Source: Clostridia bacterium (GTDB taxonomy: Bacteria > Bacillota > Clostridia > TANB77 > CAG-508). From it: a stretch of DNA of 64,000 bases. Location of the stretch: assembly GCA_017528085.1 (NCBI GenBank), contig JAFXPH010000002.1:145071-209070 (forward strand). Reading direction: 5' to 3'. Made by a program: the position numbers and the translations under genes. Positions 5,362-38,024 of this stretch are shown here, piece by piece (positions within the stretch are counted from its first letter, which is position 1; every line of letters starts with the position of its first letter). A model generated the notes under the pieces. It did not search any database. It saw only the letters and a program-made list of their open reading frames with translations, and was not told the DNA's origin.

Positions 5362-5414
5362 AATATCCTCCTTTAAAACAAAAAGCATATTGTGAAACTT
5401 AAATTCTTATTTAA

Positions 5415-6983
5415 TTATTTTTTGAATAAATCTTTGAATATATTTTTAACTACTTTTTTTGCAAGTTTTTCTGCTTCGTTACTTGCAATTCTAGTAGCAC
5501 GTTTGCCTACTTTATATCCCAAAGAATTCTTTCTTTGTCTTTCGGCTTCTCTTTCAGCTTCTTTGCGAGCTCTTTCTTCAGCTTTTCTAGCTTTCTCTTC
5601 TTCACGAGCTTGCTTTTCAGCTTCTTTTTGCTCCTTTGCTTTTTGTTTTTCTTCTTCTATTCTTTGTTTTTCAGCTTCTTCTAGAGCCTTTTCTTCTTCA
5701 TATTTTTTTGATAGTACTTCGTAGGCAGATTCATTGTCTACGGCATTATCATATTTACCATTTAGTTCTGATTTTGAAATAACCATTAATCTTATTGAAT
5801 CATCAATGGCATTCATAGAACTTTGTGGTGGTAATATTGTGGCACGGTTTACTATATTAGGTTCACCTTTTTCATTTAAGAATGAAACTATAGCTTCACC
5901 AGTACCAAGTTCTAGTATTGCTTTTTCAGTATCAAAGCTTGGATTTGCTCTATAGCTCATAGCAACAGCTTTAACAACTTTTTGCTCGGCAGGAGTATAA
6001 GCTCTTAAAGTATGTTGTACTTTATTACCAAGTTGTGCGAGTACCTCTGCTGGTATATCATTAGGTGATTGAGATATAAAATAAAGCCCAACACCTTTTG
6101 ATCTAATTAATTTAACAACTTGAACTACTTGAGTTAATATGTATGATGGTATTTCATTAAATAATAAATGTGCTTCATCAAAGAAAAATACCATCTTTGG
6201 TTTATCTAAATCTCCAACTTCTGGTAAAGTATTATTTAGTGTTGTTAAAAGCCATAGTAAGAAACATGCATATAGATTTGGATTTTTATATAATTCAACT
6301 GCATGAAGTATATTAATCTTACCTTGTCCATTTGCATCTGTCTTAAAGAAATCCATTATATCTATTTCAGGTTCGCCAAAGAAGTAATTTCCCCCTTGTT
6401 CTTCAAGCATAAGCAAACTTCTTTGAATTGTTCCTACTGTTTGACTTGCAACATTACCATAGTTTACAGTGTACTCTTTGGCATTATCTGCAACATATTG
6501 AAGTACTAATCTTAAGTCTTTAGTATCTATAATGTCATACCCTTCTTCTCTTGCAATTTTAAATACAATTGCTAGTACTCCTTCTTGAGTTTCATTTAGT
6601 CCAAGCATTCTAGATAATATTGTGGCACCAACATCTTGAAGTCTAATTCTAATTGGATGACCACTTTTTCCAAATACATCCCAAAATACTACTGGGAAAC
6701 CTTTGAAATCAAACTTATCAATTCCAAGTGAATTTAGTCTTTCTTCTATTTTGGCATTTGTTTCTCCAGGAAGACATGTTCCTGCAAGATCTCCTTTTAT
6801 GTCAGCAACAAATGATGGTACGCCCATACTTGAAAAGCTTTCAGCAATTACTTTTAAAGTAACTGTCTTACCACTACCAGAGGCACCAGTAATTAACCCA
6901 TGACGGTTAGCCATCTTAGGAACTATATATAGTTCTTCTTTTTCATTTGTTTTACCAATTAAAATCTTATCATCTAAAAACAT
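5415..6983 (-). CDS. DUF853 / HerA-like P-loop ATPase (YjgR-like) with K/E-rich C-terminal tail
   Basis: Walker A GASGSGKT, Walker B/DEAH VFFFDEAHLLF, ~520 aa. C-terminal 90 aa are a low-complexity EEKQKAKEQKEAEKQAREEE repeat. Confidence 0.65.
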   Translation of the reverse strand: MFLDDKILIGKTNEKEELYIVPKMANRHGLITGASGSGKTVTLKVIAESFSSMGVPSFVADIKGDLAGTCLPGETNAKIEERLNSLGIDKFDFKGFPVVFWDVFGKSGHPIRIRLQDVGATILSRMLGLNETQEGVLAIVFKIAREEGYDIIDTKDLRLVLQYVADNAKEYTVNYGNVASQTVGTIQRSLLMLEEQGGNYFFGEPEIDIMDFFKTDANGQGKINILHAVELYKNPNLYACFLLWLLTTLNNTLPEVGDLDKPKMVFFFDEAHLLFNEIPSYILTQVVQVVKLIRSKGVGLYFISQSPNDIPAEVLAQLGNKVQHTLRAYTPAEQKVVKAVAMSYRANPSFDTEKAILELGTGEAIVSFLNEKGEPNIVNRATILPPQSSMNAIDDSIRLMVISKSELNGKYDNAVDNESAYEVLSKKYEEEKALEEAEKQRIEEEKQKAKEQKEAEKQAREEEKARKAEERARKEAEREAERQRKNSLGYKVGKRATRIASNEAEKLAKKVVKNIFKDLFKK

Positions 6984-8357: not shown

Positions 8358-10706
8358 TTAAAGTATCATATTTTCAGTTTCATCAGTGCTTTTTTTCTTA
8401 TCTGGATTCTTCTCTTCTTCTGTTTCTATTATTGTGCTTTTAGCATTTTCTACATCTGAAAAGCCAATTTCATCTGCACTTAAATCAATTAATCCATCAA
8501 AGAAATCTTGATGTAGCCTAGAAGGAAGCTTTCTTATTGTCTCTTCTAATTCTTCAAGTTCTTGATTTTTAGAAGCGAGTGCTGCCATAGCAGGCTGAGC
8601 ATCTAATAAATTTGCCATATAAGACCCATAAAAACTTTTTTTAATCATATCTTTTTTCATGTCAAAGACATGGGCTGCAAGTGAGTCTTTCTTTTCTTCA
8701 TCTATTTTATAAAGCTGATCAAATAGTTCTTCTATGATGGCATCTGTAAATCTTTTATCTAAACTATATGAAAAGTTTCTCATTGCATCTAAGTCGTCAT
8801 ATAACTTTTGAAATAATATTCCTTTTTTAGGCCTTGTTACTTCACCTTGGGATTCATCTTTTCTAAATACATATTCTCCACTATCTACTGCTTTTCCTAA
8901 AGAGTAAAATGCTGTGTCAAATATAATTCTATTTGCTAAATAATCAAGTGAAAGTGGTACATTGTAGTTTTCATCTTCCCACAAAAAACCACCAGATAAT
9001 ACTTCAACTTTATCAAGTACTGTATCTCTATCAATTTTTATTTTGCTTGTCTTTCCATCTTTAGTGATAGTAAATATACCTTTTTCATCATCTTCTTTTC
9101 TAACATCTATTCCATTTTGGAAATTGCTTGCTCTTGATTCTTCATCACCTTCTAAAGAGATTTCTGAAACAGATGCATTTTCAAAATCATTTATTATTAG
9201 TACTCTTTTATCATCACGAACACCAGCATAAATAGCTGAATCGCCAAATGCATCAAGTCTTATAGGTACATAATCTAAAAGTGAATCAGACTCCTGGTAT
9301 TCTCTTTCTAATAATGAGTAAGATGCTAGTGTTGGAAAAATAGCTTTTGTAAACTCTGATACTTTTTCACTATTTGTCATAGTATAGATTTTATTACTTA
9401 CTGCTTGAGATGCAATTTTTGTTAAAAGCCCTTTATCTACTCTTTCAGATTGAGCAATTATTGCAGCCAAACTTTTTAAAAATGTACTATCGTTTACAAA
9501 TGAGCCATTAATAAAATCATCTCTAATAGATTTTGCTTTATCTAATAGTACTGACGCTTGAAGTGCTGCTGCATTATATTCATATAATTCATATTGATAT
9601 ATTTTAGATGTATCAAATGGGACATAGCTTTCTATTCTATATGGTAGAATTTTAACAATTTCACCATCTTCATTTCGTTCAGCTGTTTTTATAAACTCTC
9701 TAGCAAAATGACTTGTAAGTTGACTCATAACATGTTCTTTATATCTTACAGGGTCCACTTCTTTTCCCGGTATTTGAGATTTAAAGAATGAATTTTCAAA
9801 AAAGTTATCTGCAATTTTTCTAAACAGGTCAACTGGTTGTATTTCAGCTGCTGGTATATCTGTATATAAAGAAGCTACAACAGGCATAACATCTTTAAAA
9901 AAGCCATCTATATCTAATCTTCCGCCTTTAAAGTAAGCTTGGTTTTCACACTTTAATTTCATGTAATCTACATAGTGGTCAACTAAAGCTAGTTGTCCTC
10001 TTTTTAATGCTTCTTTTCTTTCTTCTACTGAATATAAAGTACCATCTTCTTTTTCGCCAAAAGCTATATCAAAGTCTTTCTTCATAGCTGAGGCTCTTTT
10101 CCTTGCATTATCAGAATCTTTACAATTTAAAGAAGATTTCATCAAGTTTTCAAAATAATTTAAACCATTACCTGTTAAATATGCAATAATGAAACTATCT
10201 CCAAACATCTTATGAGCCATCCTTGAAGTATTTACTTCACTTACATATGAATCAGTTTGAGTTTCATTATTAACAAGCATTGATAAATATTCTGTAATAC
10301 CTTCTCCAAAGAATGGTCCAAATCCACCATAACCATTATTCATAAGCGCAGCTAAAGCATGAATAGTTTCATGAGTACCTGTTCCTTTATATCTTTTTAC
10401 TATTTCAGGATCATCAGATTTTCTTATAGTTATGCTTTGTTTAATAGTGCCATTTTCGGCAAATTTTTTATGGAATCCAAGTACATTTGGATTATCTTTA
10501 AAATATTGTTCTTTGCTTTCATCAACAACTTCATAGATAAGACTTCTAGCTAAACTACTTACTTTAGAGTTCCTTATGAATCTTGTAAAATTTCTATCAT
10601 CCATCATGTTTAGGATATTATAAAAGATTCCTTGTAGCTCATCTATTAAGTCGCTATCTACATTTCTATTTTCACTTAAACTTTTTCTAATAAATTCTAA
10701 TTCCAT
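8358..10706 (-). CDS. large cytoplasmic HExxH (zincin-like) protein, paralogue A of a tandem triplet
   Basis: 782 aa, no signal peptide. Conserved N-terminal module NFTRFIRNS...THETIHALAALMNNGYGGFGPFFGEGITEYL, i.e. HExxH plus a downstream Glu. Shares the motifs YFKGGRLDIDGFFKDVMP and others with the next two genes. Confidence 0.6.
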   Translation of the reverse strand: MELEFIRKSLSENRNVDSDLIDELQGIFYNILNMMDDRNFTRFIRNSKVSSLARSLIYEVVDESKEQYFKDNPNVLGFHKKFAENGTIKQSITIRKSDDPEIVKRYKGTGTHETIHALAALMNNGYGGFGPFFGEGITEYLSMLVNNETQTDSYVSEVNTSRMAHKMFGDSFIIAYLTGNGLNYFENLMKSSLNCKDSDNARKRASAMKKDFDIAFGEKEDGTLYSVEERKEALKRGQLALVDHYVDYMKLKCENQAYFKGGRLDIDGFFKDVMPVVASLYTDIPAAEIQPVDLFRKIADNFFENSFFKSQIPGKEVDPVRYKEHVMSQLTSHFAREFIKTAERNEDGEIVKILPYRIESYVPFDTSKIYQYELYEYNAAALQASVLLDKAKSIRDDFINGSFVNDSTFLKSLAAIIAQSERVDKGLLTKIASQAVSNKIYTMTNSEKVSEFTKAIFPTLASYSLLEREYQESDSLLDYVPIRLDAFGDSAIYAGVRDDKRVLIINDFENASVSEISLEGDEESRASNFQNGIDVRKEDDEKGIFTITKDGKTSKIKIDRDTVLDKVEVLSGGFLWEDENYNVPLSLDYLANRIIFDTAFYSLGKAVDSGEYVFRKDESQGEVTRPKKGILFQKLYDDLDAMRNFSYSLDKRFTDAIIEELFDQLYKIDEEKKDSLAAHVFDMKKDMIKKSFYGSYMANLLDAQPAMAALASKNQELEELEETIRKLPSRLHQDFFDGLIDLSADEIGFSDVENAKSTIIETEEEKNPDKKKSTDETENMIL

Positions 10707-10723
10707 TTAAGTTCCTTTAAATA

Positions 10724-13135
10724 CTATTTTGTAGTATCATCTTTTTCTTCTTTATCTTTATCTGTTACTTCTTCTGTCATATCTTGGAATAAAGCCGCGA
10801 TATTACTTTGAGTAACTCTTTCTAATCCCATATTAACTAATCCTTCAAAGAAATCTCCTTCATATGATTTTTCTTCAGTCTTTTCAATTGCCTTATTTAA
10901 AAAATACATATTTTCAGTAAGACGAACACTATCTTCATCAAGTGATGCGAGGATTGGCTCAATATCTCCTCCTAAGAAAAGAGTATTTACACTTCTTAGA
11001 GCAAACTCTTTTGCTTTTTGATTTAGCATCATATATTCATCTAGTTTTTTACGTTCTTCTGTTTTCTTATCCGTGAATAATTCTCGTGCTTTTTCTATAT
11101 CTACAGGATAAATTCTGTCAAACATTTCATCTATAAATTCATCTAATTTTAGTCTATTTACATCATATCCAAATGCTTCACATGCTATAAAGTATTCTTG
11201 TACTAAAGTTTTATAATCAATTACACTTACTTTTTGGCCGTATTTAGTAAGTTTTTTAGAAGTAGATACATATCTATCCTCACTTATTCCTTGACTAAAT
11301 TCGTAGTTGAAGACATTTGAATAGACTTCATTTTTAAGTTCTAATTCATCCATCTTATAAAATTCTTCACTTGGAGCACTTTCAGTTGTATCTGGTTCTC
11401 CATCTTCAATAAATGCTCCGCCTTTAATCTGAGTTACAAATGATGTACCTCTATCTAAAACTAGTTCTGATCTATCAGTATCATTTGATATTACTATACT
11501 ACTTTGAGTTCCTTCAATTCTGTATTTAATATCAAATCCTAAATCCATTTGATTTAGTTTTTCTTCTTGAGTTCCTTCTAAGCCTATTTCTTCTACAGTA
11601 TTATCTTTAATAGATTGAACAATTAATACTCTCTTTCCATCTTTTAGACCATAGAACAAGAACTTTCCAGGCATAGAATCAAGTCTTATTTTTCTAAGTT
11701 CTAAGAAGTTAGATTTTTCTTTATATTCATCATCTAAGAAACTAAAGTTGCTTACCGTAGGGATTAATTTAGAGGCAAAACCTTTAAATTTATCCTTATC
11801 AAATGAATACATTCTATCTACAACGCCTGGTAAAATATCTCTATCAAAATCTTCTCTAGGGTCGGTTTCTCTTTTTAATTTAACTAAGCTTTGAAATGCA
11901 ACTCTATAGTTTACTCTACCAGTTCTAGCTATAATTCTTTCTAGATTTTTTGAAAATACTTCTGCTTGTCTTTTTGTTAAATCACCATGTGATTCTACAA
12001 ATGCGATGTTAAAATCTTCTCTATCAAATTTTTCAAAATCCATTTTCATAAGTTCATAGTATGTATCAGGGGCATTAGACAAAATCTTATTAAAATGATT
12101 TTTCATTAAGAGTAATACATTTTCTTTAATTTTAGAATCATCTAATTCTTCAAATTTAGTATTAAAATATGAATGCTCAATAAGTTCTCTTGATAGTTCT
12201 TCAAACATCTCTATAGCAGTCATACCTAAATCTTTATTATCGGCACCTACTGGTTCATATCCAGCTTCTGCTATCAATACTTTAGGTAACATGTCTTTAA
12301 AGAATTTATCAAAGTCAATTTTTCCATTTGTAAAGTATTCTTGATTTCTTATTTTACTTTTAGCATATTCCATGAAGTTTTCTCTTAGAAGCTGTCTACC
12401 TTTACTTAAGTATTCATATGCTTTTTTAACTTCTAAAGCTTCTTTCTCACTATCTTTTTTACTACCGTCATCATCATCTTTATAGTAAGTTAAGTGAAAG
12501 TTTTCTAAGTACTCTTCTGCCATTTGATGCATATATGTATCTCTTCTAAATTGTTCTGGATCATCTAAATCGATTAATGAATAATCAAAGAAGAACTCTC
12601 CTCTACCTGTAAGGTAAGAACAAATAAAAGAATCTCCATATAAAAGATGAGTAGCAAGAACTGTTATAACATTTTGTCTATATGATGCATCTTTTAAATC
12701 TAATTTATTCGTTAAATATGATAGATACTCAGTTATTCCTTCTCCAAAGAATCTACTAAATCCACCGAAAGCATTTTTCCTTCTTTCAGCTAATGCGTGA
12801 ATTGTCTCATGAACTGATACTCTTAGAAATTTTTTTATAGTTTCAGCATTTTCTTTCCTAATTACTATTTCTTCACCAGAATTATCATCTTTTACTCTAT
12901 GATATCCAGCAACACTTTTATGAGATTTTAAATATTCATCTTCTTCACCCAAAACACTTTTATAAATTAAGTTTTTAGCTACATAAGTAATATCCCTACT
13001 TCTAACCCATCTTCTAAAATTCTTATTATTTAAATATCTCAAAAGATCATTAAAAGTATGATTTACAGCATCTTTTATGGATTCATCTATTAAATTATTT
13101 TCTTGAATATCTTTTAATAAATCAAGCTTTTCCAT
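10724..13135 (-). CDS. large cytoplasmic HExxH (zincin-like) protein, paralogue B
   Basis: 803 aa; NFRRWVRS...VHETIHALAERRKNAFGGFSRFFGEGITEYL. Collinear with paralogues A and C. Confidence 0.6.
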   Translation of the reverse strand: MEKLDLLKDIQENNLIDESIKDAVNHTFNDLLRYLNNKNFRRWVRSRDITYVAKNLIYKSVLGEEDEYLKSHKSVAGYHRVKDDNSGEEIVIRKENAETIKKFLRVSVHETIHALAERRKNAFGGFSRFFGEGITEYLSYLTNKLDLKDASYRQNVITVLATHLLYGDSFICSYLTGRGEFFFDYSLIDLDDPEQFRRDTYMHQMAEEYLENFHLTYYKDDDDGSKKDSEKEALEVKKAYEYLSKGRQLLRENFMEYAKSKIRNQEYFTNGKIDFDKFFKDMLPKVLIAEAGYEPVGADNKDLGMTAIEMFEELSRELIEHSYFNTKFEELDDSKIKENVLLLMKNHFNKILSNAPDTYYELMKMDFEKFDREDFNIAFVESHGDLTKRQAEVFSKNLERIIARTGRVNYRVAFQSLVKLKRETDPREDFDRDILPGVVDRMYSFDKDKFKGFASKLIPTVSNFSFLDDEYKEKSNFLELRKIRLDSMPGKFLFYGLKDGKRVLIVQSIKDNTVEEIGLEGTQEEKLNQMDLGFDIKYRIEGTQSSIVISNDTDRSELVLDRGTSFVTQIKGGAFIEDGEPDTTESAPSEEFYKMDELELKNEVYSNVFNYEFSQGISEDRYVSTSKKLTKYGQKVSVIDYKTLVQEYFIACEAFGYDVNRLKLDEFIDEMFDRIYPVDIEKARELFTDKKTEERKKLDEYMMLNQKAKEFALRSVNTLFLGGDIEPILASLDEDSVRLTENMYFLNKAIEKTEEKSYEGDFFEGLVNMGLERVTQSNIAALFQDMTEEVTDKDKEEKDDTTK

Positions 13136-13151
13136 TTTGCTCCTTTAAAAA

Positions 13152-15512
13152 TTAAATCTCATCATAATCAGAAAAGTCTGGTAAATCTCTTTGTCTTTCC
13201 TGATTCCTTTTAATTCTTTTTCCACGTTCAGATTCTAGACTGTCTTCTTTAGCAAGTTCATCTAACATCTCTTCATCGATAATGTATGGATATAATGCTC
13301 TACAAGTACATCTTATCTTACTTTCTAAACTTCTAAATCTTTCTAATTTAACACTATCTACTGGAAGAGTTTTATTTTTACTTTTAGCTACTTCTTCAAT
13401 TAAGTCCATCATTACTCTTGCCATATTGCCTTTTAAGTTTGAATAGTCAGTAGTAATTTCTTCAACATCTTCAGCTTCTTCTTCATTTAATATATCTTTA
13501 TATCTTACATCTGGGAAACCATATACTTTATCAATAACTTCTTTGCAAAGAAGTCTTGTTTGAAGAGCATTTTTTATTCCAAATAGTGAATACAAGTTTC
13601 CAGCATCTTCTGCAAATGTTCTAACATCAAGTACTCTTTTACCAAACTTAGAAGTTTTTCTTCCATGTTTTTCATAATTACCTTCTTCTAGATTTTTTCT
13701 AAGTTCAGTATGAACAGCTTCTAGTAGTACTGTCTTTTTGATAATATCAAAATCTTTTGACTGAAGTGCTACTGGCTCCTTATATGGATATTCAGTAGCA
13801 AGTGGCATATGACTATCTTTATCAAATATAATATTTGACCTAGTAGTTCCAACTCTAATGGATTTTACTTCAGCTACATCTTTAAGTGGCATTAGTGACT
13901 CACTTTCAGGTACAAATAGTTTTGATACAATTATTCCATTTGAGTTATTCTTTCTTATACTCATAGCAGAACCATCTAGTGGAACTTCCTTTATAAATCC
14001 TGTTTCAGGATTAAACGTTAAAACTAGATTTGAATCATCTTTTCTAAGTAAGAAACATATTTGATCAGGGAAACAATCTAGTTTAATTCTTCCTATATCT
14101 AAATCTGCAGATTCGTTTTGATATTTTTCTTCAATTAGTGATAATATTGCAAATGAATTTATCAAAGGACTTGAATGACTTTTAAATTGTCTTGGACTAT
14201 CTGAATAGTCTAGTGCAACTGATGAAAGTAAGTTTTGGAAATCAATATCAGAAAGTGTTCCATTTACTTTTATCTTTCCAAGTACTTCAAATATTTTTGA
14301 GTAATCAATTTCTCCATCTTCATCTTCTATGTAATCTCGCTCTAAAGACACTACTAATTGTTTAGATTCAGAGCTTCTATTTAAGTTTTCATAGAATCTA
14401 TCAGATTGATTAAACTCTGGAAAGTCTTCATCACGAAGTTCTCCATGTCTTCCAAAATTACTTGAAACTTTATTAATATAACCGTTTACATCATTAATTA
14501 TTCTTCTTCCAACTTCACCTATTTGTGATTCTGGTACATCAACTAATAGATGTGATCTTTCAATTAAATGTTTTGTAAAGTCTGCAAGCATAGTAGATAC
14601 TTCTTTTTTAGATAGTTTCCATGTCTTAGATAATTCTAATGCAACAGGAAGTGTATCTTTTACAAAAAGTCTAAAATCGACTTTCCCATCCTTATAGTAT
14701 CTTAAAGACTCTATTCTTGATTTTTCATACTCTTTATAAAGTGTTAAGATTCTATCTCTACCATCTTGAAGTAAATCTTCATTTGATTTATCTTCCATTG
14801 TCTTTTGATGATCATCATCATGAACTCTACCATGTAGTTCTTCAAATTCTTCATCCATTATTTCGATAGATTCAACTAAATCATCGTAAAGACCCTTAGG
14901 ATTATTAGAGTGCTTACTTGCAATTTTAGCCATATCTCTAAAGAAATGATTTCCTTTACCTGTTAAGTAATAACATATAAATCTATCTCCAAACATCTTA
15001 TGAACAAGTCTTACTGTATCTACATTATCTTTATAAGATGTATAGTTTCTGAATTTAACAAGTTGAGTTAGATATTCTGTAATACCTTCTCCAAAGAATC
15101 TCTTAAATCCTCCATAGCCATCTTTCATAGCACGTGCTAAGGCATGAATAGTCTCGTGAGTATCTACTCTACTTTTTTCATCTAAATCTCTTGTGTATCT
15201 TACAACGATTCTATCTTTAGCAGACGCATCATCACCTTCAGTTGTATGATATCCAGCAACATCAGGATTATTCTTTAGATACTCATCTTCTGTATCTCCT
15301 GCATACTTATATATTAAATTTCTTGCTAAAGCAGATATGTGATTTGACCTTACCCATCTTCTAAAATTCTTATAACCTAAAAAATCTAAGATTTCTCCAA
15401 AAGTATCTTTAATCTCATCTTTTAAAGGTTCTTCGATGTCATCATTTTGGTCAATATATCTACTTATTAGATCATTTTCCATCTTTAGTCCTTTTACCCT
15501 TAAAAAGGGCAT
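13152..15512 (-). CDS. large cytoplasmic HExxH (zincin-like) protein, paralogue C
   Basis: 786 aa; NFRRWVRS...THETIHALARAMKDGYGGFKRFFGEGITEYL. First gene of the apparent three-gene operon. Confidence 0.6.
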   Translation of the reverse strand: MPFLRVKGLKMENDLISRYIDQNDDIEEPLKDEIKDTFGEILDFLGYKNFRRWVRSNHISALARNLIYKYAGDTEDEYLKNNPDVAGYHTTEGDDASAKDRIVVRYTRDLDEKSRVDTHETIHALARAMKDGYGGFKRFFGEGITEYLTQLVKFRNYTSYKDNVDTVRLVHKMFGDRFICYYLTGKGNHFFRDMAKIASKHSNNPKGLYDDLVESIEIMDEEFEELHGRVHDDDHQKTMEDKSNEDLLQDGRDRILTLYKEYEKSRIESLRYYKDGKVDFRLFVKDTLPVALELSKTWKLSKKEVSTMLADFTKHLIERSHLLVDVPESQIGEVGRRIINDVNGYINKVSSNFGRHGELRDEDFPEFNQSDRFYENLNRSSESKQLVVSLERDYIEDEDGEIDYSKIFEVLGKIKVNGTLSDIDFQNLLSSVALDYSDSPRQFKSHSSPLINSFAILSLIEEKYQNESADLDIGRIKLDCFPDQICFLLRKDDSNLVLTFNPETGFIKEVPLDGSAMSIRKNNSNGIIVSKLFVPESESLMPLKDVAEVKSIRVGTTRSNIIFDKDSHMPLATEYPYKEPVALQSKDFDIIKKTVLLEAVHTELRKNLEEGNYEKHGRKTSKFGKRVLDVRTFAEDAGNLYSLFGIKNALQTRLLCKEVIDKVYGFPDVRYKDILNEEEAEDVEEITTDYSNLKGNMARVMMDLIEEVAKSKNKTLPVDSVKLERFRSLESKIRCTCRALYPYIIDEEMLDELAKEDSLESERGKRIKRNQERQRDLPDFSDYDEI

Positions 15513-15596
15513 AATTTTCCTTCTAATTTTACAATTAAATTATATGTTTAAAGCCTAAAATTTACTATAACAAGCAGTTTAAATTTTGATAACAAA

Positions 15597-15631
15597 AAAG
15601 CAAGTATTACTTAATTTTGTAATACTTGCTT
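15597..15631 (-). terminator. rho-independent terminator after the 15655..16089 gene
   Basis: Perfect 13-bp stem AAGCAAGTATTAC/GTAATACTTGCTT, followed on the minus strand by TTTTTTGTTATC. Confidence 0.6.
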
Positions 15632-15654: not shown

Positions 15655-16089
15655 CTATTTATTTTTCTTCTTTCTCACTTTATTAATTACCTTGCAAATA
15701 ACCATTATAACTAATACTATAGCTAAATAAAAAACATATAACTTTAATACTACTTTAGTGTTAACATCTTTTAGCATAATTTTTTCAGGACTGTCTTCCA
15801 TATAATTTACTTTTATATCGAACTTAAAATTTTTAACCAGTGCCATATCTGAAGTAACTTCAGCTAAAGCTTTATACTCTTTCCCATCTACAGAATACGT
15901 AATATCTGCAGGATAGTATTTAACAATTAATCTATTTCTAGTAGGCCTTGTATTTACTAATACTAGATTGCCAGTAGTTTCTCCTTTATACTTTCTTCCT
16001 TGCAGTACTGTAAACTTTGGATCTGCAAATACTATTCCTACAAGTAGTATTAAAATAAATAGGAAAATTATTTTCTTCACTTTATTCAT
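15655..16089 (-). CDS. small bitopic membrane protein, hypothetical
   Basis: N-terminal signal/TM (IIFLFILILLVGIVFA) and C-terminal TM (VFYLAIVLVIMVIC) with a basic tail. Sits immediately downstream of yvcK. Confidence 0.45.
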   Translation of the reverse strand: MNKVKKIIFLFILILLVGIVFADPKFTVLQGRKYKGETTGNLVLVNTRPTRNRLIVKYYPADITYSVDGKEYKALAEVTSDMALVKNFKFDIKVNYMEDSPEKIMLKDVNTKVVLKLYVFYLAIVLVIMVICKVINKVRKKKNK

Positions 16090-17158: not shown

Positions 17159-17653
17159 TTAACCAAATTGTTCTTCTTGATTTGCTTCCATAGATAGTTT
17201 TCTTGCTCTTTCTATCATGATTTTAGCATTTCTATCTCTAGTTCTTTGTAACATTTGTTCTTCGAAGCTAGAAAGTTCTCTGTTTCCAGCACTAATTTCA
17301 AAGAAAGCTGGTCCTTGTTCCATGTACTTAAGTACATTAAGTCTAACTCCCATTTCATCGCTTGGATAGATACTTGATGATTCTTTTAACATGTACGCAA
17401 CACTTTTAATAGATTTACCTTCTTTTAATGCTTTCATAATATAAATTGACTCAGGAATATCTCTTCCGTTTTTAAAAGAATCTGTAGCACTTGCACTTAC
17501 GTCTAATTTCCATTCTGTTTGAAGCTCCGGCATTACTAAATCTTCTCCTGCTTTAATCCATTGTGGAATCATGCTTGTTGCACCTGTAGCAACTTTTTCT
17601 TCCTTGAAATCAGAGTAATCGAACTTTCGAGGTTCGTCTCCTTCCATTGCCAT
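17159..17653 (-). CDS. hypothetical protein (no family recognised)
   Basis: 164-aa ORF with strong RBS AAGGAGG. Divergent from the XRE regulator gene. Confidence 0.5.
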   Translation of the reverse strand: MAMEGDEPRKFDYSDFKEEKVATGATSMIPQWIKAGEDLVMPELQTEWKLDVSASATDSFKNGRDIPESIYIMKALKEGKSIKSVAYMLKESSSIYPSDEMGVRLNVLKYMEQGPAFFEISAGNRELSSFEEQMLQRTRDRNAKIMIERARKLSMEANQEEQFG

Positions 17654-20113: not shown

Positions 20114-21499
20114 TTATTCAATCCACTTTTTAAAGATTTCTATATTATCTCCTTTTCTTATATACTCAAACAATATATCTAAAATACCCTTGTATATTTT
20201 ACATCTATATTCATTGGGATTTTGTGCAAATAAATTATTGTCCTGTGCATAAGTGATTACCGGACAAGTCCCACAATATGGAGAATAAACGCAACTATTA
20301 CAAGTTGGTATGCATTCTAAACATGATGCAACAGCCAAAGATTTTGTTACATCACTATTCATCAAATCTTCGTATGAATCTTTGAATACATTTCCCAATT
20401 TAAAACTATTATCTCCCATTTCAGAAAGCATTCTAGCTTCATCGCAAGAATATATATTACCATCATAATAGTATGCTAATTGTCCAATTGCACCTCCACA
20501 TGGAGACCTTAATTCCATATAGTTTACTGGTTGGTTCATTAATATTTTTTTCAAAAAAATTGATGCAAGGCTTTCACTTAAGAAATAACCTTCTTTATTT
20601 TTTTCTATAATATATTTTAACGATTTGTCATAAAAACTCAAAAATTCATCTGCTTCATAGCCGATTTTTTCCCAATTTGAATCTGCTTTTCCTAATTGAG
20701 TTAATGGCCTTAGTGAAATACTATCTAGTCCTAATTTTACATACTCATCTATTATTTCTCTATAGTGATTAAAGCTATATTTTGATGTAGTTTCAATAGC
20801 ATTTACTTTGGTATTCATTTTTTGAATATCCTTTATCCTTTTTACTGTACATTCATAAGAATCATTCTTAGGAAAAGGTCTATTAGTATTGTGTAATTTT
20901 TTATTCCCATCAATAGAAGTACATATATTAACATTATGATTTATTAAAAATTCTAACATTTCTTCTGACATTAATGTTAAATTACTTACTAAACTAAACT
21001 CTATTATTTTATCGCTATTAATAGATTCAGTATATTCAACTATATATTTTATTACATCAAAATTAGTTAATGGTTCTCCTCCTTGAAATTCAAATGTCAT
21101 TATTTCAGATGGAGATTGCATAGCTATATCTACTGCTTTTTTTGCAATTTCTTTAGTCATCTTATAATCATTCTTTTCATCTAGATTACCAGCCTGACAA
21201 TATATACATTTAAAATTACAATTTTTACTCACCACAAAAATATGCAAAGATGTAGGTATGAATAAATATTCTTTCATCTTTCGTACTTCTTTTGAATAAC
21301 TATTTGAAAAAATTTCATCACTACAATTATAAATAAAGCCTTTTTCTATGAGTTCATCTTCAATATCCTTTTTTAATTCTGATTTTTTTAAAAGATTATT
21401 AAAAGTTTTTTCATCTATAAATGCATATTTTCCAGCATCAGTTGTTATTAAATATCCATTATCTATTTGTTTAAAATTAAAATAATTCAATTTATACAT
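20114..21499 (-). CDS. hxsB: His-Xaa-Ser system radical SAM maturase with C-terminal SPASM domain (HxsB-like)
   Basis: CNFKCIYC is the Cx3Cx2C radical-SAM motif. C-terminal Cys-rich SPASM region CGGAIG...CDEARML...CLECIPTCNSCVYSPYCGTCP. Located in the Hxs locus. Confidence 0.65.
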   Translation of the reverse strand: MYKLNYFNFKQIDNGYLITTDAGKYAFIDEKTFNNLLKKSELKKDIEDELIEKGFIYNCSDEIFSNSYSKEVRKMKEYLFIPTSLHIFVVSKNCNFKCIYCQAGNLDEKNDYKMTKEIAKKAVDIAMQSPSEIMTFEFQGGEPLTNFDVIKYIVEYTESINSDKIIEFSLVSNLTLMSEEMLEFLINHNVNICTSIDGNKKLHNTNRPFPKNDSYECTVKRIKDIQKMNTKVNAIETTSKYSFNHYREIIDEYVKLGLDSISLRPLTQLGKADSNWEKIGYEADEFLSFYDKSLKYIIEKNKEGYFLSESLASIFLKKILMNQPVNYMELRSPCGGAIGQLAYYYDGNIYSCDEARMLSEMGDNSFKLGNVFKDSYEDLMNSDVTKSLAVASCLECIPTCNSCVYSPYCGTCPVITYAQDNNLFAQNPNEYRCKIYKGILDILFEYIRKGDNIEIFKKWIE

Positions 21500-21512
21500 A
21501 TACTTTCAACTC

Positions 21513-22661
21513 CTATTTTACAGGCTTTATCCTTGCTTCTTTTAAATTAATTGTTGAGTTAAATAATCCCCCACATTCCTTCTTTAGTGTGCAACCACTG
21601 CATTCTTCTCTATATCTTACTTTATAATCAGATATGCTCTTTACAGCAAAAGCATATACTCTTTCATCTAAAGCACATAACGGAAAATTATATAAATTAA
21701 CTATAATCCCATGTTTTATTAGTTCCAAACAAGCTTTATAAACAGGTTCCTTTATATCTTCATAATCTACCCATATCTGATTTTTATTTATAATTGCATT
21801 ACCACACATTTCTAAAGACATAATATTAACCATTGTTATAGTAGGTATTTCATTGCATATAAATCTTGCTATTTTATCTAAAATTTTATAATTTAATTTT
21901 TGAACCACAATTCTTATTTCAACATCTATTCCTCTATTTAACAGTTTCTTTATACCACAAACAGCTTGTTTAAAGCTATTATCTGCACGTGTGATACTAT
22001 CGTGCAATTCAGGTTCATCAGCGTATAATGGGATGCCTACTCTAGTATATTTTGGTACAACAGATTTAAATTTATCTACAAATTCTGTATTAGAGAAAAT
22101 TCTTCCATTACTTAATAATAAAAACTCTGTATTGGGAAGATATTTCTTACATTCAGCAAATATTTTTATCAGATCATCTTTCAATAATCCTGGTTCTCCA
22201 CCAGTAATAGTAATGTGACTGGTATCATTTGGTATAGCTCTAATATGATCTAAGATTACATTTATACTTGGTATATCTTTTGTATTTCTTACAGAATCTG
22301 CATCTGGACACATAATACAATTCGAATTACATTGATTAGTAACTAAAATATAATTATCATTTGAATCATCTCTATACAAAACTCTTATATTTAAATCTTT
22401 AATTATTTCTATAACATCATAATTACTTAAACTATCAATATCTTTAACACCCAAACAATAATTATCTAAATTGCTATTACAAGAATCACATTCTAAAACA
22501 TAGGCTTTATATCCTATTTCTGGTTTGTCCATATTATCTTTGCTTAATACCTGTATGTAATCCTTTTTATTCTCAGCATTATCATTTTTTATAACTTTTC
22601 CTATTATATATTCTTCTCGTATCTTTATTGTTCCAGTTAATATATTCATTCTTTTTTCCAT
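21513..22661 (-). CDS. hxsC: His-Xaa-Ser system radical SAM protein (HxsC-like)
   Basis: LVTNQCNSNCIMCPD is the Cx3Cx2C motif. There is no SPASM tail. ATG at 22661 has AGAGGAG upstream; the track start at 22682 overlaps the upstream gene. Confidence 0.6.
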   Translation of the reverse strand: MEKRMNILTGTIKIREEYIIGKVIKNDNAENKKDYIQVLSKDNMDKPEIGYKAYVLECDSCNSNLDNYCLGVKDIDSLSNYDVIEIIKDLNIRVLYRDDSNDNYILVTNQCNSNCIMCPDADSVRNTKDIPSINVILDHIRAIPNDTSHITITGGEPGLLKDDLIKIFAECKKYLPNTEFLLLSNGRIFSNTEFVDKFKSVVPKYTRVGIPLYADEPELHDSITRADNSFKQAVCGIKKLLNRGIDVEIRIVVQKLNYKILDKIARFICNEIPTITMVNIMSLEMCGNAIINKNQIWVDYEDIKEPVYKACLELIKHGIIVNLYNFPLCALDERVYAFAVKSISDYKVRYREECSGCTLKKECGGLFNSTINLKEARIKPVK

Positions 22662-22671
22662 AATTTCTCCT

Positions 22672-23709
22672 CTATAATACAACTTTTAAAACAAAGAATA
22701 AAATTTCTCCTAAAAGAATAAAAGGTGCAAAAGGCATATGCCTTACAATAGTTATCTTATCAGTTCCTTTTGGAGTTTGACTCCATCTTTTTATACTTTC
22801 TACTTCTTCATTAGTCAATCTACAATCCGTTGATTCATCTGAGAATTTTGGCAATCCTTTAACCTTAGAGTTATAAAATGGTATAACACTATCAAAAGAT
22901 AAAATCATTCTCTCTTTTAAATCCTTAACTGAGATTGTTTTATAATTATATTTTTCTGATATTTTTCTAAAAATCATTATTAATACTATTATTACTAATA
23001 GAGAAACATCTATTGTATAAGCTTTTATTCCATATAAAATTACATACCCAATATTAATAGCAAGCAATGTGATTAAAGATATAATTTTAACTTTATTCTT
23101 TCTATTAATTTGATAAAAGAACAAAAGCATTACTACATTTATAATATAAACCAATTCATTGTTATACATAACATAAGTAGTAAAAAATGTATTAATAATG
23201 TTATAAAACAAGATAGATAGTAAATAGCCATTTGTAAAATCAACTATATAGTCAATAAAAATCTCTTTAGTAAATTTACTGCTTTTTATATTGTTTAATT
23301 TTTCTTTATCAATCAAGAATAATACTATTGTTTCAATAAAGACATAAATAAAAGCAATAGAAAACACATAAATCAACAAATACATACTTGCAAAATAGTT
23401 GTTATTACTAACTTCATACAATTCATATGGAATAATAAAAGTTAAAGCAATAAATAGTTTTGCATCTCCTGCTCCCCATATTTTAAAATAAAAAAAAGCA
23501 AACGATACTATACATGATATAAAAAAATTTACTAAATGACTTTTTACATATGTTTCATCAATTTGCTGAAAAAAAACAAGATACATAAGAGCACTTAATG
23601 ATACTGCTACAATAATAGATTTATTATATATTTTTTGATTTTTAAAGTCAGAAATAGCTGATACAATTCCTATTAATAATGCAATAACAATTTGAGTATA
23701 AACTAGCAT
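22672..23709 (-). CDS. polytopic membrane protein, A24 prepilin-peptidase-like (putative leader peptidase of the Hxs locus)
   Basis: About 8 predicted TM helices. WGAGDAKLFIALTFIIPYELY resembles the prepilin peptidase (A24) GxGDxKL catalytic Asp region. Confidence 0.45.
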   Translation of the reverse strand: MLVYTQIVIALLIGIVSAISDFKNQKIYNKSIIVAVSLSALMYLVFFQQIDETYVKSHLVNFFISCIVSFAFFYFKIWGAGDAKLFIALTFIIPYELYEVSNNNYFASMYLLIYVFSIAFIYVFIETIVLFLIDKEKLNNIKSSKFTKEIFIDYIVDFTNGYLLSILFYNIINTFFTTYVMYNNELVYIINVVMLLFFYQINRKNKVKIISLITLLAINIGYVILYGIKAYTIDVSLLVIIVLIMIFRKISEKYNYKTISVKDLKERMILSFDSVIPFYNSKVKGLPKFSDESTDCRLTNEEVESIKRWSQTPKGTDKITIVRHMPFAPFILLGEILFFVLKVVL

Positions 23710-27137: not shown

Positions 27138-28973
27138 TTAATTATTAGACTCTTCAATAAACTTTACTATTTTTTTACAGATATTTATTGCTTGTCTAGA
27201 TAAATCATTATAATCAATTATATTTTTAGCTATTCTTTTTGAGAAATCAACTTTATTCAAAATAGTACCAGTTCCACCTTTTTTTGAGTACTTTCTACTT
27301 AATAAATAATGATCATCTATAAAGCTTCCCATATATGTTTCTTTATTCTTATATTCTCTTTCCTCATATTTTTTCTTATACTTTACTTCTTTACCATCAA
27401 ACAAAGTTCTCTCTAATACTTCTTTTGAAATTGTATTTTCAATCTCTCTAACAGTTAATTCATAAAAATTATCTTTGAAAATATCTTTTAACTTCTTCTT
27501 TCTTTCACTTTTGTTTTTAGAGTCATTATCATTATCACATATAATAAAGCTTCTATTGGTAATGCCTGATGTATTTATTGAATCTATTGAGTTTGTTGAT
27601 TCAAAATCCCAATGTGTAATATTATTTCCGCCATATTCTACAAAAGCATAATTTATATCTTCTTTATAATTTGTGTTTCCTTCATTTTCAAAATATACTT
27701 CTAAATACCTTTTTATTAGTATCTTATCACTAATTCCTTCAACCCAAATAGTACAATTAGCCATAAATACCGAAGAATTGTTTACCCCTAAGCTTTCTAA
27801 GATTGTAATATCATTAGGTAAAGTATATGAAATTCTGAATCTATTATTTGAGTTGTCAATATTAGTGAACTTAAATATAGATATATTAGAATAATCAAAG
27901 CAACTATCAATTAAATGATTCGAGTGCGTTGTTATAAAATACTGATGTTTAGCAAAAATATCTAGATGTAATATTTCCATCAATCTTCTTTGAAATCCTG
28001 GGTGTAGATTTAGTTCTGGTTCTTCAATAAAAAACACTCTTTCTCTGTCCTTATTCTCATAAATTACATACAAGATTGTAATTAATTGCTTAATTCCATC
28101 CCCTAATTCATGTAAAGGTCTTTCCTGATTACCAATTTTTACATTTATAAATCCTTCATCTTTTTGAGGTATAAGAGTAAATTCATTTCCATTATAAAAC
28201 TGTTGTGAAATAAAGTTTTGAAATTCTTTTATAAAAATTCTACCATCTTCTTTTCCTAATAATTTATTAGTTATATCTTCATACAAATTTTCAGCAGTAA
28301 ATATTAATTGTTCTTTTATTCCATAAGCTTTTTTTATCTTGTTTTGATATATTTGATTAACATTTGTTTTATATTTTTCTAAAGCATCTCTTTGCCTTTG
28401 ATTCATTAAAATAGATTTTAAATCATCATTATTATTGTTAATTTCAAAATAAATATTAAAGTTTTCTATTCCTCTTAAAATAGGTATATAAATTGGATTA
28501 CGCGCTGAAATTGATGTCTGTCGTACATTTTTGTTTTCTCTACATAGTATTTCTAATAATCTATTCATTTGACTATCTATATGAGATATATAATTACTAA
28601 CAGGATAATTATTAGATTTGTAATTGTTTTTAAACATATCTATTTTTTCTTGAATACAACAATAAAAGTCCGTATTTGTCATATCATTATTGTTATCTAT
28701 TTGAAAATCATAATTTGTGTTATTGGTAATTAGTTTTAGATTATTAATAATACTATTTCTACAATCATTTGTGTCATCTTTTACAAAATCATTAGATAAA
28801 ATTTTAACCATGTCGGAGTTTACTAAAAGCCTCATCATTTTACTTTTTCCACTATTATTTTCTCCTATAAACACATTAACTTTATTTAAATGATTTATAT
28901 ATTTAATAGGCATTCCGTTTATCCCATAATAAATATTATCAGTTGCCCCTGCAATTTGTACAGCATTAATCAT
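27138..28973 (-). CDS. OLD-family ATP-dependent endonuclease (ABC-type ATPase plus TOPRIM), standalone class-1-like
   Basis: Walker A VFIGENNSGKS. ABC signature/D-loop FIEEPELNLHP. TOPRIM residues IWVEGISDKILI (Glu) and FIICDNDND (DxD). Asn-rich low-complexity inserts. Confidence 0.6.
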   Translation of the reverse strand: MINAVQIAGATDNIYYGINGMPIKYINHLNKVNVFIGENNSGKSKMMRLLVNSDMVKILSNDFVKDDTNDCRNSIINNLKLITNNTNYDFQIDNNNDMTNTDFYCCIQEKIDMFKNNYKSNNYPVSNYISHIDSQMNRLLEILCRENKNVRQTSISARNPIYIPILRGIENFNIYFEINNNNDDLKSILMNQRQRDALEKYKTNVNQIYQNKIKKAYGIKEQLIFTAENLYEDITNKLLGKEDGRIFIKEFQNFISQQFYNGNEFTLIPQKDEGFINVKIGNQERPLHELGDGIKQLITILYVIYENKDRERVFFIEEPELNLHPGFQRRLMEILHLDIFAKHQYFITTHSNHLIDSCFDYSNISIFKFTNIDNSNNRFRISYTLPNDITILESLGVNNSSVFMANCTIWVEGISDKILIKRYLEVYFENEGNTNYKEDINYAFVEYGGNNITHWDFESTNSIDSINTSGITNRSFIICDNDNDSKNKSERKKKLKDIFKDNFYELTVREIENTISKEVLERTLFDGKEVKYKKKYEEREYKNKETYMGSFIDDHYLLSRKYSKKGGTGTILNKVDFSKRIAKNIIDYNDLSRQAINICKKIVKFIEESNN

Positions 28974-36238: not shown

Positions 36239-38023
36239 TTACCTTTCAATTTCTACTCTTGTTCTTACTTCATTTACAACTGTTCTTATTCTTCTGCCAT
36301 TTATAGTTTCAAAACTTGGGAATTCTTCATTAATTAAGAAATCTAATACAACATTAAAATTACTTGTATCATAATCATGCAAATTATTATTGTTCACAAT
36401 AAATTCTGGAGTTATATTTTCTCTCGCACTATTTCCTTTTTTACATATAAACCTAACCATATATGGATTTTTAATTCCATTTTCATCATATCCTCCAATT
36501 ATTGCATAATCTATTAAACTTGCAAACAAATCTGCATCGAAAGATTTATACATATTTCTATTTCCTACACTTAGTATTTTATCTTTTATTGTATTTATTT
36601 TTGTTCCGTATCCTTCTTCATCTTCAATAATAGTATTTAACTTTTCTAATTTTTCATCACATTCTATTATTCTATTTTGAATATCCATTTGTTTTCTTTC
36701 AAAAACACTTTGTTCTATTTTTTCTTCAACATATAAATCTACTAATTTAGATAGTTTTTCTTTTAAATTTTTCTTCTCATTCATTAGTTTATCTTTCATA
36801 GTATAATTTACAGATGTTTGAGACGATTCTTTTATATTATTTATGAAATTTTCTATTGCAATTCCATCATTTGCAGTAAGCATATGATATGATTCCATAA
36901 AACATTTTTCTAAAATATCTTCTCTAATACTTTTACTACTTGGACAATATAGCCTTGCTTGTTTAAATGCGGCAAGACATTCCCATTTTGCATCCTTATA
37001 TGTTTTTCTTCTTCCAACTTTATCTCCACAAAATCCACACCAAAGTCTTCCACTAAAAACTGACCTTGAAGAATTGTATTTACTTGTTTCAATAAAGTTG
37101 TTTCTTCCTTTTCTAATATTTTGAGCTCGTTCAAAGTCTTCTCGTGAAATTATTGGTTCATGATGATCTTTTATGTAGTACTTATCTTCTTCTCCATTAT
37201 TTTTTGCTTTCTTATGAGTAATAACATTCGGAACATAAGTCTTTCCTTGTTCAACATCTCCAATATACTTTTCATTTTTAATTATTCCAAGTATTGTAGA
37301 ATCACTCCACTTTTTTAACCCATTTGGTGATAAAACTCCTTCTCTTTCTAGTTGTTGTGCAATAGTTTTTGAACCATATCCATTCAAGTACTTTTTAAAA
37401 ATATATCTTACTATTTCAGCTTCTTCTGGAATAATAGTCATTTTCTTCGTTTTATAATCATATTTATATCCATAGCAACTTACAAATCCAACTATTTCTC
37501 CTCTTTCTTTTTTCATTTTAAGTCCTAATTTTATATGTGAGGAAATAGTTTCAGATTCTTGTTGAGCAACAGATGATAAAACTGTTAAAAGAAGTTCACC
37601 TGCCATATCTAAAGTATTTATATTTTCTTCTTCAAATATAACAGCAACCTGTAATTCTTTTAATAATCTTACATATTTTAATGTGTCTAATGTATTTCTC
37701 GCAAACCTAGAAATAGACTTAGTTAAGATTAAATCTATTTTTCCATCAGTTGCATCTTTTATTAATCTCATAAAGTTTCCTCTTTTTTCTGCTCTTGTTC
37801 CTGATATTCCTTCATCTGCATATACTTCAACAAAAGTCCATTTTGGATTAGACATTATCTTATTTAAGTAATACTGTTGTTGAGATTTAAAGCTTGTTTG
37901 TTGATCTTCTAAATCTGTACTTACTCTGGCATATGCAGCCACTCTTAATTTTTGACTTCCTACATCTGCCGAATTTATATTTCTTAAACTATCATCATTT
38001 TTTCTTATTATTTCGACTTCCAT
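36239..38023 (-). CDS. large serine recombinase (resolvase/invertase N-domain plus recombinase and zinc-ribbon domains)
   Basis: LRVAAYARVSTDLEDQQTSFKSQQQYY has the catalytic Ser in RVSTD. 594 aa; Cys pairs in the C-terminal region. Confidence 0.8.
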   Translation of the reverse strand: MEVEIIRKNDDSLRNINSADVGSQKLRVAAYARVSTDLEDQQTSFKSQQQYYLNKIMSNPKWTFVEVYADEGISGTRAEKRGNFMRLIKDATDGKIDLILTKSISRFARNTLDTLKYVRLLKELQVAVIFEEENINTLDMAGELLLTVLSSVAQQESETISSHIKLGLKMKKERGEIVGFVSCYGYKYDYKTKKMTIIPEEAEIVRYIFKKYLNGYGSKTIAQQLEREGVLSPNGLKKWSDSTILGIIKNEKYIGDVEQGKTYVPNVITHKKAKNNGEEDKYYIKDHHEPIISREDFERAQNIRKGRNNFIETSKYNSSRSVFSGRLWCGFCGDKVGRRKTYKDAKWECLAAFKQARLYCPSSKSIREDILEKCFMESYHMLTANDGIAIENFINNIKESSQTSVNYTMKDKLMNEKKNLKEKLSKLVDLYVEEKIEQSVFERKQMDIQNRIIECDEKLEKLNTIIEDEEGYGTKINTIKDKILSVGNRNMYKSFDADLFASLIDYAIIGGYDENGIKNPYMVRFICKKGNSARENITPEFIVNNNNLHDYDTSNFNVVLDFLINEEFPSFETINGRRIRTVVNEVRTRVEIER

Positions 38024-38024
38024 A

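Follow-up and report, generated by a model that had tools for sequence, protein, structure and literature searches.

Three consecutive minus-strand genes of the window, as we call the whole 64,000-nucleotide stretch of Clostridia bacterium DNA analyzed here, probably form one operon that encodes three paralogous, soluble and signal-less zinc metallopeptidases of a small, new gluzincin family within clan MA(E), a family that would be restricted to uncultured low-GC gut Firmicutes and has no entry in any library searched. The gluzincin reading is supported by the invariance of E110, H113, E132, G133 and Y152, together with conservation above 90% of H109, in an alignment of 58 long members whose mean column identity is 18% (residue numbers are those of the 803-aa copy B). 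Four rival explanations were weighed, which in falling order of likelihood are an exported effector or toxin, a pseudo-protease, an anti-phage module and a mis-assembly.

A tandem array of three diverged paralogs

The three adjacent co-directional open reading frames of 782, 803 and 786 aa described in the original prediction were found exactly as claimed, and are referred to here as paralogs C, B and A, respectively. The gaps that separate them measure 16 and 17 bp rather than the 17-18 bp first reported, and each contains a strong Shine-Dalgarno sequence. The features of the array are listed below by their positions in the window.

15598 to 15631, minus strand: terminator-like hairpin (13-bp stem, then a T-run) after the gene of the 144-aa membrane protein, from a consensus scan
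15564 to 15592, minus strand: promoter-like site TTATCA-17-TATAGT with TG upstream, before paralog A, by consensus match only
13152 to 15512, minus strand: paralog A, 786 aa (776 aa from Met11), with its putative catalytic domain at about 14616 to 15512
15144 to 15158, minus strand: HETIH of paralog A, residues 119-123
15075 to 15089, minus strand: EGITE of paralog A, residues 142-146, the first Glu being the proposed third zinc ligand
13140 to 13146, minus strand: Shine-Dalgarno sequence AAAGGAG, strong, in the 16-bp gap before paralog B
10724 to 13135, minus strand: paralog B, 803 aa
12236 to 13135, minus strand: modeled gluzincin domain of paralog B, residues 1-300, from the structure model
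12254 to 13135, minus strand: the same domain as delimited by conserved blocks, residues 1 to about 294
12797 to 12811, minus strand: HETIH of paralog B (H109, E110, H113), on the model helix 100-119
12728 to 12742, minus strand: EGITE of paralog B, on helix 128-142, with E132 as proposed ligand and E136 as proposed second-shell residue
12668 to 12685, minus strand: SYRQNV block of paralog B, which includes Y152 (invariant) as well as N155 and V156 (both nearly so)
10712 to 10718, minus strand: Shine-Dalgarno sequence AAAGGAA, strong, in the 17-bp gap before paralog C
8358 to 10706, minus strand: paralog C, 782 aa, with its putative catalytic domain at about 9852 to 10706
10359 to 10373, minus strand: HETIH of paralog C, residues 112-116
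10290 to 10304, minus strand: EGITE of paralog C, residues 135-139

Translation of paralog A may begin at 15512 or, alternatively, at Met11 (15482); the latter position, which an NCBI MAG annotation adopts, lines up with the starts of B and C. The upstream neighbors of the array are a CofD/YvcK gene and the gene of the small membrane protein (144 aa). Co-transcription with the yvcK/CofD gene, as had been envisaged, is unlikely: since the terminator-like hairpin and the promoter-like site lie in between, the triplet looks like a transcription unit of its own and not like a part of that of CofD/YvcK.

The paralogy of the three proteins is real, and because each copy matches the family hidden Markov model (HMM) with E < 1e-120, it goes far beyond chance. 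Overall protein identity is 27-31%, with 37-42% in residues 1-295 vs. 11-30% in the remainder, and the alignable DNA of A and C is limited to ~220 nt surrounding the catalytic motifs, at 76% identity. The shared blocks that had been quoted are present, namely NFRRWVRS/NFTRFIRN, HETIHALA...GGF..FFGEGITEYL, YF.NGK.D..FFKD.LP and LEGD/LEGT, the last of which reads LDGS in the first copy. The three catalytic domains form one clade in a neighbor-joining tree, and this clade, together with the domain identities, supports the proposal of an old duplication maintained as an operon. Paralog A is about as similar to P0007 (44% identity) as it is to B (41%), so that the triplication would be old, although its timing is uncertain.

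Thirteen contigs from several samples, among them a 608-kb scaffold from ruminant gut, carry an identical 786-803-782 array. Three of the array contigs were compared with the window: two match it at 100% over ~8 kb, and a single 1-nt indel sets the third apart. In the L011 assembly, a 1-nt indel in a run of A splits copy A and may be a sequencing error.

The absence of a signal peptide was borne out by hydrophobicity scans. The 19-residue Kyte-Doolittle mean of the three window proteins does not exceed 1.22, their N-termini are hydrophilic, and no transmembrane or signal-like segment was found in them or in any of the 58 members. The proteins are probably cytoplasmic or otherwise intracellular.

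A putative zinc site at the N-terminus

Pairwise identity among the 58 aligned members is only 14-26%, and the conservation of the family is concentrated in residues 1-280. In addition to the residues named above, W43, G77, T135, E136, N155, V156, Y174 and D499 are each at least 90% conserved (~90% for E136). The family signature can be written as HExxH-x(12-41)-(N/G)EG(I/L)TEY...(S/G)YxxNV...YYKDGKxD, in which 12 to 41 residues (mode 14) separate HExxH from the Glu, with exactly 18 in each copy of the window. Neither HExxH nor EGxTE has been lost from any of the 46 intact genes in 37 sequence sets, which comprise the window and 36 loci. The sole exception seen is the database representative P0005, which has YESYH in place of HExxH and suggests that some family members may be inactive.

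Of the gluzincin-type metal site first proposed, the combination of HExxH with a downstream Glu stands, but the choice of the Glu does not. The most probable third zinc ligand is E132 of copy B, 19 residues past the second His, rather than the Glu at +23 (E136), which lies one helical turn after E132 and presumably corresponds to the second-shell Asp170 of thermolysin.

Predicted fold and structural relatives

A full-length model based on five sequences was mediocre (pLDDT 61). Residues 1-300 of B were modeled from a 36-sequence alignment with a pLDDT of 90.4 and a pTM of 0.89. This model comprises N-terminal helices and a three-stranded sheet (56-61/77-81/88-93), then the HExxH helix (100-119), followed directly by the EGxTE helix (128-142) that carries E132 and E136, and finally a helical C-subdomain. 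The predicted domain has the two-subdomain fold of thermolysin-like enzymes, with a β-sheet N-subdomain and a helical C-subdomain. The remaining ~500 aa are helical, then form a β-rich block, and are helical again with an acidic tail. As a whole, the family proteins combine a large size with high acidity and a mainly helical structure.

The original prediction had anticipated a zincin fold, and structure prediction indeed gave a zincin-type model of the N-domain, with no confident counterpart in the PDB. None of the Foldseek matches of this model to the PDB had an E-value below 1, and the domain is therefore remote from every solved structure. The closest known catalytic domain is that of the M1 peptidases (aminopeptidase N, ERAP1, tricorn-interacting factor F3, LTA4H). 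Gluzincins placed lower among the top 25 structures were M3 PepF (6.7), MATCAP (6.7), M61 (6.6), thermolysin (6.4) and M36 (6.4). Profile searches of the PDB with the full-length proteins and with the N-domain gave nothing significant; the zinc site of LTA4H was among the sub-threshold sequence-profile matches (E ~1.2), and with a profile trimmed to the catalytic core the LTA4H matches were lost and only chance matches to RNase H were returned. Alignment of the family profile with residues 201-451 of E. coli PepN by hhalign covered 40 columns (pairwise E 0.0034, probability 9%), and paired H109/E110/H113 with H297/E298/H301 of PepN and E132 with its zinc-ligand E320.

The proteins had been held to resemble none of the M3 (PepF), M1, M13 or M48 peptidases, and this was confirmed at the level of sequence, as no HMM of M1, M30, M9, M3, M13 or M48 was matched at threshold. 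In contrast with M1 enzymes, the family has no GxMEN exopeptidase motif (0 of 58 members) and no β-saddle N-terminal domain, the zincin domain beginning at residue 1. Pfam Peptidase_M1 (PF01433) stays far below its gathering score, with sub-threshold matches in 2 of 36 N-domains (best E 0.034). Structure-based identity to M1 is 7-14%, the spacer, which has 18 residues in the M1 pattern HExxH-x18-E, spans 12-41 residues in the family, and the C-terminal region of the family is unrelated to that of M1 by any test run. The likeness to M30 (hyicolysin/lugdulysin, PDB 7bb8) is one of fold only, with 7% identity in the structural alignment and no match of the Pfam or NCBIfam model of M30 in the family. 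Staphylococci secrete M30 proteases, which are synthesized as precursors with both a signal peptide and a pro-region; the family described here has neither, and carries an extra ~500 residues. The M9 collagenases of clostridia and Vibrio and the generic Peptidase_MA gluzincins showed no sequence-level match, and the family differs from them in its architecture, in which accessory domains of collagenases and signals for secretion are absent. The family shares no sequence similarity with thermolysin (M4), the archetype of the gluzincins and a secreted enzyme made with a propeptide, and is much further removed from it than from M1 or M30. Overall, the predicted fold and site support the N-terminal domain as a gluzincin that belongs to no described family, given that the GxMEN motif, any family HMM match and a signal peptide or pro-region are all absent.

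Family size and distribution

The three proteins had been assigned to no recognizable family, and searches of Pfam, NCBIfam, PADLOC, PHROGs and PDB sequences likewise gave nothing at threshold for them. Only noise emerged when the three proteins and the 58 family members were scanned with the HMMs of Pfam, NCBIfam, PADLOC and PHROGs. A word-indexed search of 5.8 billion clusters found 4 proteins only, two of them the window's own genes, even when a 58-sequence profile was used, and an exhaustive search was needed to reveal the family. Using a 5-sequence profile against 1.84 billion representatives, HMMER retrieved 83 clusters at E ≤ 1e-3, 64 of them at E ≤ 1e-10, without pulling in any known family. 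In nearly all of the longer matches (~600-1043 aa) the alignment covers the greater part of the protein, and the other matches are short fragments. All 83 clusters are unnamed or annotated as "hypothetical," and come from gut MAGs of uncultured Bacilli and Clostridia. A further 27 loci, some of them from ruminant and human gut, came from scans of GTDB species genomes and JGI metagenomes, and no relative was found on 2.9 million viral contigs. A search of the literature for an earlier description of the family returned nothing relevant.

Genomic context and a small partner gene

Downstream of the array in the window lie genes for a NUDIX hydrolase, an inositol monophosphatase, a HerA-like ATPase and a Ham1 ITPase. 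In other loci, the family gene (X) is found in the contexts PPDK - X - (convergent) Lon-RimI-TsaB-TsaE, NadD-NadE - X - NAGPA-like glycosidase - VanW - TrmB, gyrA - X and pheST - X. These housekeeping contexts are conserved within clades and differ between them, as would be expected of a chromosomal gene passed on vertically more than of a mobile or defense island. A single copy is usual; two occur in tandem in L001, and two flank PPDK in L004. The three copies of the window are the maximum seen and are unmatched among the loci examined.

A link with a HerA/DUF87-type ATPase, suggested by the HerA-like gene three genes downstream, was rejected. A DUF87 protein of 505 aa is encoded in L007, and in the ~930-aa clade a gene that likewise encodes 505 aa is found repeatedly upstream of the family gene. 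The product of this recurring gene is a polysaccharide/MurJ-like flippase, and BLAST detected no relationship among the three proteins.

In about one third of the related loci, the family gene is directly followed, sometimes with an overlap, by a partner gene of ~100-175 aa. The partner is homologous across L001, L005, L007/L008, L009, L013/L014 and L034/L035, with BLASTP E-values as low as 1e-36 within the first five loci and HMM E-values of 1e-13 to 1e-65 overall, and L025/L026 have a more distant copy ~5 kb upstream. It has a conserved N-terminal core of ~90 residues and no Pfam match, and most copies end in a basic amphipathic helix, e.g., ENIFKRFFNKIIGFVFRK, which appears reminiscent of membrane-targeting sequences. 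The partner HMM found no copy in the entire 64-kb window, nor in L002-L004. It is conceivable, as a more tentative extension, that a new MEROPS-level gluzincin family, confined to a few uncultured gut lineages of Bacilli and Clostridia, and its dedicated partner constitute a proteolytic or regulatory system inside the cell, possibly associated with the membrane and so far undescribed, from which the lineage of the window would have lost the partner while the protease was triplicated and sub-functionalized.

Proposed mechanism

The analysis establishes the gene structure, the paralogy, the invariance of the motifs, the predicted fold, the rarity of the family and its genomic contexts; the mechanism that we infer from these extends to zinc binding, peptidase activity, endo- vs. 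exo-specificity, a cytoplasmic location and the role of the C-terminal region. The N-terminal ~290 residues of each copy would form a thermolysin/M1-like catalytic domain made of a three-stranded sheet, an active-site helix and a "glutamate helix." H109 and H113 of the active-site helix and E132 of the next helix would bind one zinc ion, and E110 would act as general base. E136, one turn past E132, probably orients a ligand, and the invariant Y152 is a candidate stabilizer of the transition state. Substrate binding would fall to the edge strand formed by residues 88-93. Because the GxMEN anchor of the substrate N-terminus that typifies M1 is absent, the enzymes are likelier to be endopeptidases or oligopeptidases than aminopeptidases. 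The divergent C-terminal ~500 residues most likely set the choice of substrate or partner, and the divergence of these regions suggests that the three copies are specialized.

Alternative explanations

Among the alternatives to an intracellular metallopeptidase, the one that survives best, though it is unlikely, is that the proteins are exported effectors or toxins, such as contact-dependent or non-classically secreted proteases that act on proteins of the host or of competitors. The small partner would then be an immunity protein, an inhibitor or a chaperone, and an arms race would account for the diversification of the tandem copies. Neither a signal peptide or transmembrane segment nor a domain for delivery, of the LXG/WXG type or other, was found in the 58 members, however, and secretion-system genes are not adjacent. 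The neighborhoods are housekeeping in nature, syntenic within clades and not island-like, and the catalytic motif is intact in every copy. An obligatory immunity protein is also hard to square with a window that has three copies yet lacks the partner.

We regard as still less probable a non-catalytic, zincin-like scaffold with a structural or regulatory role, which would bind peptides or proteins and keep HExxH for metal-dependent folding. The loss of the first His in P0005 would suit such a pseudo-protease, as would the size, acidity and helical content of the proteins and the failure of every peptidase family HMM to reach threshold. Nevertheless, E110, the second His, the ligand Glu and the Tyr are strictly invariant in 58 members at ~18% mean column identity, and the catalytic set is kept in each of the 46 intact genes, the pattern that catalysis rather than mere folding would be expected to leave.

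That the array is an anti-phage defense or abortive-infection module, with the protease as its effector, seems very improbable. PADLOC matches do not rise above noise, the only one for the window proteins being a 34-residue AbiEii fragment in one copy (E 0.003), and no PHROG was matched. The 2.9 million viral contigs hold no relatives. The neighbors (NUDIX, inositol monophosphatase, CofD/YvcK, PPDK, Lon, NadD/NadE and gyrA) are non-defense genes, and the fixed position of the family within clades suggests vertical inheritance.

Finally, an assembly artefact in which one gene was wrongly repeated, the outcome that would have undone the triplet as first described, has nothing in its favor beyond the general risk of metagenome assemblies, and is refuted by the low protein identity of the copies, by the short alignable stretch of DNA and by the recurrence of the array on 13 contigs from different samples and assemblers, two of them identical over ~8 kb, which excludes a collapsed or duplicated mis-assembly.

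Concluding remarks

Many uncharacterized zincin families exist, and what is new here is a family and an architecture inside a well-known clan, which overturns nothing known. The layout of the proposed metallopeptidases is unusual for gluzincins, in that the catalytic domain sits at the extreme N-terminus and is followed by ~500 residues and, in some lineages, by a linked partner gene. The predicted catalytic site of the 803-aa copy (H109, E110, H113, E132, E136 and Y152) is testable. If active, these proteins would define a new peptidase family, recognized by no current annotation resource and carried by abundant but uncultured Firmicutes of the ruminant and human gut.

A small partner gene in related loci

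In approximately one third of the distinct related loci, the family gene, which codes for a predicted gluzincin with HExxH and EGxTE motifs, is followed immediately by a conserved gene for a protein of about 100-175 aa:

L001, 6432-6935, partner gene
L005, 12291-12773, partner gene
L007, 12973-13422, partner gene
L008, 4789-5238, partner gene
L009, 8468-8938, partner gene
L013/L014, about 9246-9746, partner gene
L034/L035 (6348-6644 in L035), partner gene

In most copies, the C-terminal end of the partner protein is a basic amphipathic helix. Comparison of the partner gene with Pfam returned no match, and the gene is absent from the window.

Sequence features and natural variants of the family

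The YYKDGKxDF block is conserved in the three tandem paralogues A, B and C, corresponding to residues 267-274 of B (window 12314-12337) and to equivalent positions in A and C, and its G271 and D274 (B numbering) are conserved at 90% or more. The block bears a weak likeness to an EF-hand calcium loop; sub-threshold matches to GCAP1 (E about 0.3) pair it with 'FNKDGYIDF'.

Two plausible start codons for paralogue A, each preceded by an AGGA-type RBS, are found at 15482-15512. The downstream one, Met11, fits where B and C begin, and one NCBI annotation also uses it.

In the 797-aa database representative P0005, YESYH replaces HExxH, thereby removing the first zinc-binding His, and this protein may be an inactive family member. 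Its N-domain is 89% identical to that of another family protein, P0004, and the near-identical copies in L002 and L004 retain HESYH. Furthermore, in one assembly (ERZ28018792, locus L011), a 1-nt indel within an A-run at about 2000-2040 breaks paralogue A into ORFs of 470 and 270 aa, at a site corresponding to the vicinity of residue ~470 of paralogue A in the window. Either a sequencing error or a frameshift at strain level accounts for this indel.

Other genes of the window

Additional genes and ORFs occur near the triplet and elsewhere in the window:

5392-5724, plus strand, 110-aa low-complexity ORF (Leu/Ser/Phe/Ala), lying antisense to the HerA-like gene downstream of the triplet, at that gene's 3' end
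15655-16089 and 17159-17653, two small genes adjoining the upstream CofD/YvcK genes
20114-23709, a pair of adjoining radical-SAM proteins (461 and 389 aa), then a 345-aa protein
27138-28973, ATPase of the OLD/Abi-type family (AAA_15/AAA_21, 611 aa)
36239-41271, large serine recombinases with Resolvase and Recombinase domains, at least two of them (594 and 496 aa)

The 110-aa ORF is almost certainly not a gene. Of the small genes adjoining CofD/YvcK, 17159-17653 encodes a soluble 164-aa protein and 15655-16089 a protein of 144 aa with hydrophobic segments at both termini; neither matched any family. An A24 domain (type IV prepilin peptidase) is present in the 345-aa protein. The ATPase, a possible defence gene, is unrelated to the A-C triplet. 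Finally, a third ORF, 597 aa long, lies between the two serine recombinases, an arrangement which suggests that 36239-41271 is an integrated mobile element or a prophage remnant.
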